Source: Waddliaceae bacterium (GTDB taxonomy: Bacteria; Chlamydiota; Chlamydiia; Chlamydiales; SLFE01). From it: 24,740 nucleotides of DNA. The stretch is taken from contig CAWAPJ010000002.1 in NCBI GenBank assembly GCA_963783885.1, positions 122,050 through 146,789 of the forward strand, given 5' to 3'. The number at the start of each line of letters is the position of its first letter. Position 1 is the stretch's first letter. Below are positions 21,177 through 24,740 of this stretch, one piece after another. The translations under genes and the position numbers were made by a program. The notes beneath the pieces are model-generated. The model saw only the letters and a list, made by a program, of their open reading frames with translations, was not told the DNA's origin and searched no databases.

Positions 21177-22622
21177 ATGTCTTACCCCTTATCCTTTGAA
21201 TTTAAGCAAAAGCAGACGCAAAACTTAAAACAAAATCAACTGCTGATGATGATGCCTAAGATGCAGCAGGCAATCTCGCTTTTGCAGGCTCCTGTTTTGG
21301 AAATTTCCCAAATTATCGACGCTGAGATGGAAAAAAATCCCATGCTTGAAATGATTGAAGAGTATGGCGAAGAAACGAACAAAGAGGATGGCGACCCTAA
21401 AGAAGTGGAAGTCGATCATAATGATTTTGAAATTATGCAAAAACTCGATGATGAATATCGGGACTTTTTCGATCAAAGCGGCAGCTATCAGTCAAAATCT
21501 AGAAAGGAAGAACAAAAAAAGTTGTTTTTAGAGCACTCCATTATCGCCCCTGAAACCCTTTATGGTCATCTCATGAACCAGTCCCGGGAAACTTTCGAAA
21601 CAGAAAAAGAGTTGCAACTGGCTGAGTTGATCATAGGAAGCCTTGACCACCGAGGATTTTTGGTTACCGACATAGAAGAAATTGCCGCAATGGGAAACGT
21701 GGCGCCTTATGAAGTAGAAGATCTCCTCAAAGAGATTCAGACATTTGAACCCTTCGGTATCGGAGCTCGTTCAACGAAAGAGTGCCTTCTCATTCAGTTA
21801 AGAAATGGAGGGAAAAAAGCCTCCCTTGCTTATAAGATCATTGAGAAGTATTATGACGAACTCCTCCATAATAAAATTCCATACATTCAAAAAAAATTAA
21901 ATATTACCTATGAACAAATTTGCCAGATCATGGAAGAAGACATCGTGCGCCTTGACTTGCAGCCCGGCTCTTGGTTTTCTACGACTAATGAGAGCGTCAT
22001 AGTTCCCGATGCAAGAATACGCGAGGAGGAAGGAGAGCTTGTGCTCGATATTAATGACGATGTCATCCCTCCTTTGAGAGTAAATCGAAAGTATTTGAGA
22101 ATGCTAAGCCAACAAGATCTCGATCTTTCGACGAAAGAGTTTATCCATCAGCATTTGATTTCAGCCAAATGGCTGATGAAAAATATTCATCAAAGAAACG
22201 AAACTCTATCGCGCATTCTTCGTTTTATCATGAAAAGCCAAAAACAGTTTTTTATCGACCCTAAAGGGGAGCTTGTCCCTATGACAATGAAAGATATTGC
22301 CGAAGAGCTTGGCTTGCATGATTCGACGGTGGCCAGGGGCGTTGCGAATAAATATATCGATACGCCGCGGGGAGTTGTACCGCTTAGGTCATTGTTTTCA
22401 TTTTCTTATCAGAAACAAGACGGCTCCGAGCTGTCGGCTCAGACCGTACGGGAAAAAATGCAGAAATTGATTGATCAGGAAGACAAAAAGAAACCGCTAA
22501 CCGATGAGAGGATCTCTCAGGATCTGAAAGTTCTGGGCATTGAATGCGCGAGGAGGACTGTTGCCAAATATCGAAAAGATCTGAAATTAGGCAATGCTCA
22601 GCAAAGGCGGAAGTACGGATAA
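21177..22622 (+). CDS. rpoN: RNA polymerase sigma-54 factor
   Basis: Q/L-rich region I, GIGAR..ECLLIQL, HTH DIAEELGLHDSTVAR and RpoN box ARRTVAKYR. AGGAGG RBS. Confidence 0.97.
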   Translation: MSYPLSFEFKQKQTQNLKQNQLLMMMPKMQQAISLLQAPVLEISQIIDAEMEKNPMLEMIEEYGEETNKEDGDPKEVEVDHNDFEIMQKLDDEYRDFFDQSGSYQSKSRKEEQKKLFLEHSIIAPETLYGHLMNQSRETFETEKELQLAELIIGSLDHRGFLVTDIEEIAAMGNVAPYEVEDLLKEIQTFEPFGIGARSTKECLLIQLRNGGKKASLAYKIIEKYYDELLHNKIPYIQKKLNITYEQICQIMEEDIVRLDLQPGSWFSTTNESVIVPDARIREEEGELVLDINDDVIPPLRVNRKYLRMLSQQDLDLSTKEFIHQHLISAKWLMKNIHQRNETLSRILRFIMKSQKQFFIDPKGELVPMTMKDIAEELGLHDSTVARGVANKYIDTPRGVVPLRSLFSFSYQKQDGSELSAQTVREKMQKLIDQEDKKKPLTDERISQDLKVLGIECARRTVAKYRKDLKLGNAQQRRKYG

Positions 22623-23467
22623 ATTTGCTTCCATCTAAGTTCTTCGCCTTGCTTTTTTTCTGCGAAAGCGGCGATCTCCTCTGCAGGCATTTTGGAAAAC
22701 CTGGCAATCTCCTCATCCGTTAATCGGTAAATGACCGCATTTGGCTGGCGGGTTTTTCCCAAATTCTGCAAGCACCTTTCAAAGGTCTTTCGGCTTCTCC
22801 AAAGCCTGAGTAAAGCGTAGGCAATCATTCCAAGAGGAATGAGCCACAAAAGAGGCATTAAGAAATGGCCAAACCCCGAGGCGGCGGCCATGATATCGAC
22901 AGCAGCAATCATAAACACAGTGAGTAGAAAAATCATCGCTTCGATTGAGGAGCGGACGAGGGAGCTGAAAGTTTTTTGGAACCCCGAAGAGGCTGTCCGG
23001 TAGGCCAGCATTTCTTCAAACTCGGGCTCGTCGAACATCATCCTTCCCACATGGCAAAGCTCGTGTCCCACAAGTTCCTTTCGTTTGTAGATTCCCAAAT
23101 AGGACGTTTTGCGATGAAGGGCTTTCCGAAGTTGGAGAAAGGCGCCCATCGGTGTGTCGTCGTCTTTTTGGAAAATCCAGGCGCAACCCCCATGCCAGGG
23201 AGCGAGCTGATAATTGCTGAAAAAGCAGGGAACCCAGCCGGGGTTGATATCGTAGAGTTTCTTGGTGAGTTCAAAAGATTCCTCCAGGGCAGAACGAGAG
23301 AGATCAGTGTCTTCTGCGGCAAAAGGGACCTCTTTTGTAAACTCTTTGGGCAGGGTCTGCTTCAGCGAAAGGCAGTAATCGACTCGCTTTTGAAACTCCT
23401 CGGCAGACTCGCCGGGCCCGGCAATCAACCCCATCCGGTTTAATCGGCTCAACTCTTCTTCCAGCAT
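22598..23467 (-). CDS. Hypothetical membrane protein with an HExxH motif (putative metallopeptidase)
   Basis: GHELCHVGR followed by FEEMLAY. Two hydrophobic segments near the C-terminus. ATG 23467 is preferred, but the start is uncertain. Confidence 0.7.
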   Translation of the reverse strand: MLEEELSRLNRMGLIAGPGESAEEFQKRVDYCLSLKQTLPKEFTKEVPFAAEDTDLSRSALEESFELTKKLYDINPGWVPCFFSNYQLAPWHGGCAWIFQKDDDTPMGAFLQLRKALHRKTSYLGIYKRKELVGHELCHVGRMMFDEPEFEEMLAYRTASSGFQKTFSSLVRSSIEAMIFLLTVFMIAAVDIMAAASGFGHFLMPLLWLIPLGMIAYALLRLWRSRKTFERCLQNLGKTRQPNAVIYRLTDEEIARFSKMPAEEIAAFAEKKQGEELRWKQIYPYFRLC

Positions 23468-23627
23468 GCTGACCAGAATAGCCTTAATACACACTGAAGA
23501 ATCAACATTTTTCCTTCCGAGTGAGTTGCACAACTCACGCAGACCATTTTTTGCAAGTGTCTTTAAAGCAAGTGATATATTTTGATTCCTTACTTGATTC
23601 TAAGACCCTGATTGCTACCTAAACCTT

Positions 23628-23737
23628 AGCTAGAGCTTACACGAGTGCGCCAGATACAACTGTAGCGTCGACGGCAAGGGTAATCCCTTGCCGAGGCGCT
23701 ACAGGCAGTAGATGGTGTGCTCGTGTAAGCTCTAGCT
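23628..23737 (+). repeat. 110-nt subterminal hairpin of the IS, at the transposase 3' end
   Basis: Perfect 18-bp inverted repeat AGCTAGAGCTTACACGAG (23628-23645 / 23720-23737), inner stems, and apex CGGCAAGGG-TAAT-CCCTTGCCG (23672-23693). Confidence 0.9.
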
Positions 23738-24571
23738 GAGCTCCCCTTTGCATAAAAACGAAACACTATAGGCAAGAATTGCACAGAATACTTTTATCAA
23801 AAAGCCTTGTTCAGTGCAGAACTTAAAAGTTCTTTAGAAAAGGTTTGTTATGCAGCTAAATGTCGTCTCGACAATCTGTCGCTTGCTGCTAATTTCCCTC
23901 TCTTCAATTGGTGTTCGGACTCTATTCTTTGCTTTACATCCCCGTTTTGCAAGCAATGTAATTTGTTCTTCTTTCAAGATGTCTTCTAAATCAAAGCAAT
24001 TATACGCACCATCTGCATAAAGTTTAGAATCTGGTGGAATGTCCAGTTTCATTTCCCAGAGCACCTTTACATCGCTTACTGCTCCTGGCTTGAAAAGAAC
24101 TTCAACCGGCTTGCCTTCGCTCGTCACAATCATATGAACTTTTATGCCGCAAAAGTAACGCTTTTTAGAAGCTGCGAAACCTAAATACCTTCGTTCTAGA
24201 AAAACCTTCCGTTTATCGATTCTATTTTTCTGACAACATGAAACTGGAAAGCTGTCTATAGCAAAACCCTGATCTTTATTTATTTGCTTAAAAAATAGAG
24301 CTAAAAAACGGAAAATGGCGTTCCAACAAATCCAAGGAATTTTATGAATTCGGCGATTTAGCCGGCTATTGCTTAAAATAGCTCTGAATAATCGTAATCT
24401 TTTACATAAATATCTGGACATTTTATAGTTACAAGAAAAATATTTTGCTGATAAAATAGCAAAAGTTATCACTTCTGCGTTGGACATTTGAGATTGAGGA
24501 TCGTCTTTAATCCCCAAAATTCGAAGGATTTCTTCGCTGATGACATAAACTGTTGTTGCGTAAGTTTCCAT
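23732..24571 (-). pseudogene. IS982-family DDE transposase with an in-frame TAA at codon 246
   Basis: MSNAEVIT, SRLNRR, AIDSFP, YFCGIKVH, YADGAY and RQIVETTFS. After TAA (23834-23836) the same frame continues RTFKFCTEQGFLIKVFCAILAYS..., an IS982-like C-terminus, to TAG at 23732-23734. Confidence 0.85.
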
Positions 24572-24612
24572 GATGCCCCCTTTTTTTGGCTAAGGAAGTA
24601 TCATAGAGACTA

Positions 24613-24729
24613 TTGTCGTTAAAATCTTTCATTGAATTCATCTGCTAAGCCTCGATTATCGGCAAGGGATTACCCTTGCCTTCAAATCGAGTCTACGCAT
24701 CTGAATCCAACGAAAGACTTTAACAACAA
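24613..24729 (-). repeat. 117-nt subterminal hairpin of the IS, in the transposase 5' leader
   Basis: 33-bp arms (24613-24645 / 24697-24729) with 6 mismatches, inner stem CTCGATT/AATCGAG, and apex GGCAAGGG-TAAT-CCCTTGCC on the minus strand. Confidence 0.88.
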
Positions 24730-24740
24730 GTTTAGGTAGC

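Follow-up and report, generated by a model that had tools for sequence, protein, structure and literature searches.

A conserved structured module, folding on the inward-reading strand, adjoins both terminal repeats of an IS982-family insertion sequence from a chlamydia-like bacterium

Insertion sequences of the IS982 family are about 1 kb (962 to 1,155 bp) long and duplicate 3 to 9 bp of target DNA upon insertion. To our knowledge, their transposition pathway has never been worked out, and their ends are described as simple short repeats. Hairpins placed inside both ends are a feature of another group, the IS200/IS605 elements (e.g., IS608), in which structure is conserved over sequence, noncanonical pairs are retained, and one strand is recognized. 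These elements rely on a small HUH/Y1 transposase, lack terminal inverted repeats, and carry short hairpins that both lie on the top strand. This work concerns a 24,740-nt stretch of DNA (referred to here as the window, to which all bare positions refer) from a chlamydia-like bacterium of the Waddliaceae (contig CAWAPJ010000002.1, positions 122,050 to 146,789), which ends in a copy of an IS982-family element with a full length of 1,147 bp. We regard it as nearly certain that this element represents a deep branch of the family in which a conserved, ~117-nt structured module directly follows each 21-bp terminal repeat, and that the module is an integral, ancient, and nonnested part of the element that is selected to fold on the inward-reading strand only.

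The copy comprises the last 1,137 bases of the window (from position 23604), with 10 nt trimmed by the contig end. The full length was obtained from 11 copies in the same genome for which both flanks are available; in each, the terminal inverted repeats are perfect, 21 bp long, and identical at both ends. Within the window, the left repeat (23604 to 23624, + strand), at the end downstream of the transposase gene, is complete, while the right repeat (24730 to 24740, − strand) is represented by its first 11 bp and is found in full in the other copies. The original prediction, made from the letters of the window, had correctly placed a repeat at each end, including the last base of the left one (23624) and the + strand start of the right one (24730), but had taken the repeats to be 11 rather than 21 bp long. 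All 11 two-flank copies are bordered by a duplicated CNNNG pentamer (5 bp). The terminal G/C can be assigned either to the element end or to this duplication; if it is counted as element, the target duplication is NNN (3 bp) in the same 11 copies. In public metagenomes, contig breaks coincide exactly with the element ends, and a comparison of contigs from four DNA runs with the full copy gave breaks at the ends only, with no joints, circle junctions, or variants. All 20 sequencing-run entries listed for the element are DNA metagenome contigs, and no RNA run is among them. In its own genome, the element has 15 places that match nearly the whole query at 95 to 100% identity, in addition to many partial matches.

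A single open reading frame (ORF) on the − strand encodes an IS982-family DDE transposase, which has 279 aa in its intact form. The protein matches Pfam family DDE_Tnp_1_3 (7e-16; 59 bits against a cutoff of 27), and the intact form exceeds the cutoff of the curated NCBIfam IS982 equivalog model, NF033520 (151.9 against 130 bits). Placement in the family is further supported by terminal repeats of the family type, with ends starting AC (the perfect 21-bp repeats read (G)ACCCTGATTGCTACC...), by the presence of one ORF within 1,147 bp, at the upper edge of the range given above, and by the short target duplication. In the window copy, a premature TAA at 23834 to 23836 (TTA on the + strand; TTG in other copies) shortens the ORF to 245 aa (23834 to 24571, − strand) and cuts off the 3′ part of the gene (23732 to 23833, − strand). 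As such, this copy is probably nonautonomous.

For comparison with classical members of the family, we used seven annotated IS982 elements from plasmids of seven phyla, with hosts from Pseudanabaena, Sphaerospermopsis, Chondrinema, Sulfurospirillum, Rhodothermus, Thermus, and Clostridium and a protein identity of 26 to 36%. These elements share with the present one the transposase family, an approximately equal protein length, and a common repeat signature (ACCC..GTTGCTACC there and ACCCTGATTGCTACC here; the annotated elements read ..ACCCAAGTTGCTACC). However, their repeats lie only 861 to 1,050 nt apart, which leaves no room for hairpins, and none of the seven matched the covariance model of the hairpins described below (best score, 9.4 bits; E = 0.39). 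The hairpin-bearing branch is ∼235 bp longer than classical IS982 elements, and its two modules account for the excess.

The hairpin at the downstream end of the gene (the down hairpin) comprises 116 nt (23625 to 23740, + strand), and the upstream, or up, hairpin comprises 117 nt (24613 to 24729, − strand). In both cases, the folded strand is the one that reads inward, and each assignment is based on the predicted fold and a model match (147.3 bits for the down hairpin and 120.7 bits for the up hairpin, the latter match being cut by the contig end), with covariation as further evidence for the down hairpin. RNA folding returned a single long hairpin with a tandem GA/GA internal loop for each region, as had been proposed from the sequence. 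The positions proposed for the conserved boxes were also correct: CAGAT begins 27 nt from the repeat at both ends (23651 and, on the − strand, 24703), the 25-nt cores (23670 to 23694 on the + strand and 24683 to 24659 on the − strand) differ at one of 25 positions, and a second AGATG follows 86 and 87 nt inward (23710 and 24643). The two hairpins share one architecture. A 28-bp basal stem begins at the first base past the terminal repeat and is followed by the tandem G·A (AGAU facing AGAU), a helix of 3 bp, an asymmetric internal loop, and a helix of 7 to 10 bp (10 bp in the down hairpin); the top consists of a purine-rich loop, an apical stem of 8 to 9 bp, and a 4-nt loop, and the apex forms a perfect short palindrome. 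Despite this matching architecture, the stem sequences of the up and down hairpins are unrelated.

Both hairpins fold better on the inward strand. As RNA, the left hairpin reaches −92.7 kcal/mol on the + strand (z = −15.3) versus −75.8 on the − strand, and the right hairpin reaches −70.7 kcal/mol on the − strand (z = −12.4) versus −50.6 on the + strand. In each of the four combinations of strand and end, none of 200 shuffled sequences folded as well (z from −8.7 to −15.3). With DNA parameters, the inward strand was again the better one (−49.0 versus −42.0 on the left and −37.7 versus −28.2 on the right).

Since a DNA-level search of 40 relatives returned fragments in one same-genus genome only, homologues were sought through the protein. 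Relatives of the transposase with a length of 279 aa number in the hundreds in metagenomes, and a scan of genome and metagenome contigs with an alignment of 31 sequences gave 92 loci. An inverted-repeat search found both hairpins in four of the five homologues that were checked, with the common core and CAGATG boxes and with different stems; one of the four is an element from Verrucomicrobia whose transposase is 54% identical. The fifth homologue, on a 1,043-bp contig cut inside the upstream hairpin, has the downstream hairpin only. A MAFFT alignment of 11 ends from six elements (repeat plus hairpin, read inward) yielded a consensus of 49 pairs, with compensatory changes at 40. The covariance model built from this alignment gave 198 matches at an E value of ≤0.01 in the 92 loci. 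The 97 best matches (E ≤ 5e-14) fall in 62 loci, while 15 loci have weaker matches only and 15 have none; in 33 loci, strong matches flank the transposase gene on both sides (these locus counts were tallied by hand from the match tables). Copies from Verrucomicrobia are among the matches, as are elements with transposases 36 to 43% identical, in which the tandem G·A is kept and the sequence of the apical stem differs. Matches before the gene lie on the plus strand and those after it on the minus strand, such that all read inward; the exceptions noticed were neighboring or nested nonautonomous elements (L077:622-766 and L119:918-1063). In a sample of the host phylum, matches at an E value of ≤1e-10 occurred in 22 of 150 scored genomes and in 19 of 90 genera. 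One large genus of small genomes had no match at this threshold in any of 22 genomes.

Among 86 distinct ends, 94.2% of 4,194 cells are standard pairs, compared with 61.1% in shuffled and 36 to 44% in slid alignments, and double changes occur at 48 of the 49 pairs. The covariation score is 0.872, versus 0.228 after shuffling (0 of 500 shuffles reached the observed value) and 0.09 to 0.14 after sliding, although the 86-end alignment was fitted to the model and its sequences are related, so that the shuffle control overstates the significance. The MAFFT seed, which is independent of the model, agrees with the 86-end result. The original prediction had reasoned from two ends that structure is conserved where sequence is not and that a single-stranded fold is therefore selected, and had called for a covariation analysis; the covariation is present, and the pairing and double changes across 86 ends bear out the reasoning. 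Sequence is conserved in the tandem G·A (AGAUG on both arms, nearly invariant), the purine-rich loop, and the apical stem, while the other stems covary freely.

The mismatches carry a strand bias. On the inward strand, there are 353 G·U or U·G cells versus 60 A·C or C·A cells, the latter concentrated in three columns, and 174 purine·purine versus 40 pyrimidine·pyrimidine cells (pair types were counted by hand from the 97-row pair table). Wobble pairs make up ∼40% of the cells in six columns beside the tandem G·A. A similar asymmetry is seen in nine palindromic MITEs (transposable elements of the miniature inverted-repeat type) with a terminal repeat on each side, all of which score 131 to 147 bits in one orientation and 84 to 97 bits in the other. 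From these two biases, we conclude that selection acts on the single strand that reads inward; a function in duplex or cruciform form predicts no such bias. The sequence conservation of the tandem G·A, purine-rich loop, and apical stem suggests that a protein recognizes the module, the simplest candidate being the transposase of the element itself; the conserved boxes, which vary together with the transposase clade, point to this enzyme as well. Such a reader could act on either RNA or DNA.

The MITEs and the rearranged copies show how the module behaves as DNA. A 20-nt core motif occurs at 53 sites in the genome, all of them in element copies or derivatives (a control pattern gave 0). Nine of these derivatives have the layout repeat-hairpin-inverted repeat, five of the left and four of the right type, and form palindromes of ∼158 bp over their whole length; identical CNNNG pentamers flank six of the nine, as read by eye. 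These stand-alone copies have the properties expected of MITEs, being short, noncoding, present in multiple copies, bounded by the repeats of a resident element, and associated with a target duplication, and the earlier idea that the module seeds stand-alone palindromes thus held. Snap-back copying of one end is their simplest origin. Two hybrid MITEs of ∼147 bp (L038, C5:72964-73110; L039, C1:93452-93597) join the 5′ arm of the left end to the core and to the outer arm of the right end; their apical loops lie in opposite orientations, and inversion of the apex has therefore occurred. In five copies, the left hairpin is missing in whole or in part. Because they have at least four different junctions, with varied remnants of the 5′ arm and short direct repeats (such as GAGCT or CGAG), these copies are deletions of an unstable palindrome rather than empty sites. 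Target duplications border the hybrid MITEs as well as the copies with a deleted hairpin, which shows that movement continued in the absence of long stems. In one copy (L018, C2:83629-84669 of the same genome), the upstream hairpin has had ∼33 nt of its inner arm replaced by the perfect complement of the outer arm; this conversion removed the tandem G·A and the G·U pairs, and the same copy lost its other hairpin. Given that arm conversion occurs and yet the mismatches persist across the branch, we take the mismatches themselves to be selected.

Several further arrangements were observed. Short derivatives that keep both hairpins, with the gene mostly or wholly deleted, are present at L119:918-1262, L161, and L144 and at places in genomes G091 and G139. 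Such derivatives are common in other genomes and metagenomes, and one is nested in the transposase gene of another element. A left-type palindromic MITE lies right after the −10 box of a truncated copy, at a CTTAG site (L042, C35:2682-2999 of the own genome), and the element family thus inserts into its own 5′ region. At C35:5872-6022 of the own genome, a 72-bit model match falls outside the BLAST list of copies and could represent one end of a second, divergent branch member. Between the upstream hairpin and the transposase gene of one homologue lies an unrelated palindromic element of ∼283 bp with inverted arms of 59 and 28 nt (L112:148-430). In the window itself, positions 21177 to 23533 hold a sigma-54 gene (rpoN, 481 aa, three Pfam domains) followed by an opposite-strand ORF of 311 aa without a Pfam family; the element is inserted ∼70 nt past the start of the latter.

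The position of the hairpins relative to the gene bears on their possible function. In intact copies, the downstream hairpin overlaps the last codons of the gene and its stop codon, and comparison with these copies places the intact TAG at 23732 to 23734 (− strand), inside the 3′ arm of the hairpin. On the other side, a −10-like hexamer, TATGAT (24600 to 24605, − strand), lies 7 nt past the upstream hairpin. Across 18 aligned homologous ends, a TAnnnT hexamer occupies this place, ∼7 nt after the hairpin, with the T, A, and final T invariant in all 18, and the start codon follows ∼25 to 35 nt beyond it. The 5′ untranslated region (24572 to 24598, − strand), as read from the sequence, contains an anti-Shine-Dalgarno stretch (24592 to 24598) able to pair with the G-rich ribosome-binding site (24576 to 24582). 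A C/U-rich stretch complementary to the ribosome-binding site is found by eye between the hexamer and the start codon in most of the 18 homologues, at the point where transcription of the native mRNA would be expected to start. RNAalifold gave no consensus pairs on the gapped alignment of the promoter and 5′ untranslated region. A generic two-hexamer promoter and terminator scan of the full copy likewise made no call at the hairpins or in the region preceding the gene; the −10-like box is evident from the alignment alone. Since this box lies downstream of the upstream hairpin in all 18 ends, the hairpin is, judging from sequence, probably not a leader of the element's own mRNA, and the leader option of the original prediction is weakened. 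The native mRNA would start after the hairpin, and only transcripts reading in from outside would hold both the hairpin and the complete anti-Shine-Dalgarno stretch. A promoter formed at a junction of abutted ends was also considered and rejected: the inner TAAACT of the repeat at the upstream end is −10-like, but the −35 box would fall outside the element, and abutted ends provide none.

We tentatively propose, with a probability of roughly 40%, that the module acts as RNA in transcripts that read into the element from either flank. RNA polymerase entering from outside would copy the inward strand at either end, and the resulting very stable structure, with its 28-bp stem and internal loops, could uncouple the element from outside transcription by processing (e.g., by RNase III), by blocking, or by capture of the transposase. 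Pairing of the anti-Shine-Dalgarno stretch just after the element's own −10 box would add to this by silencing read-in transcripts and not the native mRNA; the presence of this arrangement in most of the 18 upstream ends points to read-in transcription as a pressure that the element answers. Features that argue for RNA are the helix beside the tandem G·A, rich in wobble pairs that form a stable stem in RNA and a poor one in DNA, and the purine-rich loops. Derivatives devoid of long stems nonetheless moved, which suits a regulatory or accessory role of the module better than a catalytic one.

Several points weigh against this proposal. Neither the promoter scan nor the alignment revealed a promoter for an inward RNA in the terminal repeat or stem, so that such RNA would be made only when a host promoter reads in. 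No intrinsic terminator was called at either hairpin, and no U-tract follows either stem, so that neither hairpin is an intrinsic terminator. The terminal repeat lies outside the hairpin, which therefore cannot shield it from transcription, and any advantage of placing an insulator at the gene's 3′ end is a matter of argument. In addition, the abutment of hairpin and repeat at zero distance and the twofold symmetry fit DNA transposition chemistry at least equally well, and in DNA hairpins, too, G·T and tandem G·A are the mismatches tolerated best, with the DNA folding parameters favoring the same strand.

These last points lead to the main alternative, which we consider possible though doubtful, namely, that the module works as folded single-stranded DNA. 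The inward strand would be the nontransferred strand and, at an entering replication fork (e.g., in replicative or copy-out transposition), the lagging or displaced template, which would make the hairpin a strand-specific DNA signal. It could be a recognition site for the transposase, as in IS200/IS605 ends, or a priming signal, comparable to the single-strand origins of rolling-circle plasmids and to the paired, opposite-strand ssi sites of RSF1010-type origins. Besides the direct adjoining of the terminal repeat at both ends, the symmetry, and the agreement of the DNA parameters, this alternative is favored by the snap-back MITEs, apex inversions, and arm conversion, which indicate that the DNA folds in vivo, and by the lack of a promoter for an RNA in the scan of the full copy. 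However, in DNA form, most of the wobble-rich stretch beside the tandem G·A would be melted, transposition still took place in elements that lack the long stems, and the transposase has the same length and domains as those of hairpin-free IS982 elements. The fork geometry is hypothetical, and we know of no DDE insertion sequence that uses single-stranded hairpins.

An RNA made from a promoter of the element itself, or from one formed at a junction, is improbable. Such an RNA could serve as a leader, an antisense RNA, or a guide-like cofactor comparable to the IS110 bridge RNA, and it would account for the RNA-like signature (G·U pairs, tandem G·A, and purine-rich internal loops) as well as for an apex that is conserved in sequence and changes with the transposase clade. 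The −10-like box nevertheless follows the upstream hairpin in 18 of 18 ends, no conserved promoter is found in the terminal repeat or the first bases of the stem, and the better strand of the downstream hairpin is antisense to the gene. No variable, target-complementary loop was seen in the hairpins, and the target is just CNNNG.

We likewise give little credence to a function in duplex DNA, in which the apex palindrome and the two CAGATG boxes would be subterminal sites bound, in double-stranded or cruciform DNA, by the transposase or by a protein of the host, with complementarity maintained by arm conversion. The apex is a perfect short palindrome, resembling a dimer operator; subterminal binding sites are common in DDE transposons; and arm conversion was seen in one copy. 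However, every G·T of one strand corresponds to an A·C of its complement, and a duplex function thus predicts no strand bias, whereas 353 versus 60 cells were observed and the two MITE orientations differ by 34 to 61 bits; conversion would also erase the tandem G·A, which is nearly invariant. An origin from independent MITEs or palindromes nested in the element ends and hitchhiking there, which the existence of stand-alone copies and of element copies without the left hairpin might suggest and which clean empty sites would have betrayed, is very improbable and was rejected: the module sits at the same place at both ends across two phyla without a terminal repeat or target duplication of its own, the up and down types are each orthologous between elements, the hairpin-less copies have at least four deletion-type junctions with microhomology and stem remnants, and 53 of 53 core-motif sites are in element copies or derivatives.

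Leaving aside the choice between RNA and DNA, it is conceivable, if rather unlikely, that, in a deep branch of a classical DDE family, end modules have arisen that function solely in the form of a folded single strand, one on each strand, and that the transposase reads. If this is the case and the modules act as DNA on the displaced or lagging strand, they would couple transposition by a DDE enzyme to replication, in a manner resembling that of HUH elements or attC sites; if they act as RNA, they would be a transposase-bound cofactor or a sensor of read-in transcription. Neither form of end recognition or of control is known from DDE insertion sequences. More generally, a conserved, strand-specific module of ∼117 nt at both ends, with >80 distinct examples, near-complete covariation, and a distribution over at least two phyla, implies that this branch uses single-stranded RNA or DNA in its life cycle. 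It offers a handle on how a DDE element may sense or resist polymerases entering from the host genome, and it explains, by snap-back of one end, the origin of a class of perfectly palindromic MITEs in chlamydia-like bacteria. Such elements and their MITEs are common in environmental chlamydiae, with matches in 22 of 150 genomes sampled, and the covariance model can be used to annotate both.

In the published literature, we found no description of subterminal hairpins in IS982 elements; supplements, ISfinder, and TnCentral lay outside this search, and a named member whose ends are annotated may therefore exist. The available part of a study of IS982-derived MITEs in Cardinium describes no such hairpin (PMC9769881), and the available part of PMC2878342 makes no mention of subterminal hairpins in IS982 elements. 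A match in Rfam, which would have removed the novelty, was not found: the best hit, MIR5534 (35.5 bits against a gathering score of 79), is a long-hairpin artifact, and nothing else scored below an E value of 1. The end module thus seems to be a new variant of element build within the known IS982 family, one that is apparently undescribed for DDE transposons.

Partial likenesses to this build exist in several described systems. Among palindromic MITEs, Correia/NEMIS elements of Neisseria, ERIC, and RUP are transcribed into long hairpins that RNase III or RNase E cleaves. The MITEs described here are similarly near-perfect palindromes (∼158 bp) with terminal repeats and target duplications, and a host transcript crossing them would fold; unlike in those families, the autonomous parent is known and carries a hairpin in each end, and it is the hairpin interior, not the repeats alone, that forms the fold. 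In the fold-back inhibition of IS10 and IS50, and in the context of IS10 RNA-OUT, subterminal sequence of a DDE element exerts its effect as structured RNA, and read-in transcripts alone contain both of the pairing halves that hide the ribosome-binding site. The anti-Shine-Dalgarno arrangement after the −10 box resembles this design. The IS10/IS50 structures are small, present at one end, and overlap the gene start, whereas the modules here span ∼117 nt, occur at both ends, lie clear of the ribosome-binding site, and bear features like those of protein recognition.

On the DNA side, single-strand origins of rolling-circle plasmids, the paired ssi sites of RSF1010-type origins, and integron attC sites are folded DNAs of ∼60 to 150 nt, specific for strand and orientation, in which structure and a few boxes are conserved and mismatches matter; they serve replication priming or tyrosine-recombinase recombination, and none is part of a DDE insertion sequence. 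The IS110 bridge RNA and the IS1111 seeker RNA resemble the module as covarying, structured noncoding elements in the end of an insertion sequence. Those systems combine one RNA with a DEDD recombinase and with loops complementary to target and donor, whereas the present branch pairs a DDE enzyme with two modules that have neither evident guide loops nor a promoter. Finally, the likeness to IS200/IS605 is one of structure and not of type: in place of an HUH/Y1 enzyme and short, same-strand hairpins without inverted repeats, the hairpin-bearing IS982 branch combines a DDE transposase and 21-bp terminal repeats with ∼117-nt hairpins whose favored, folded strands are opposite at the two ends.

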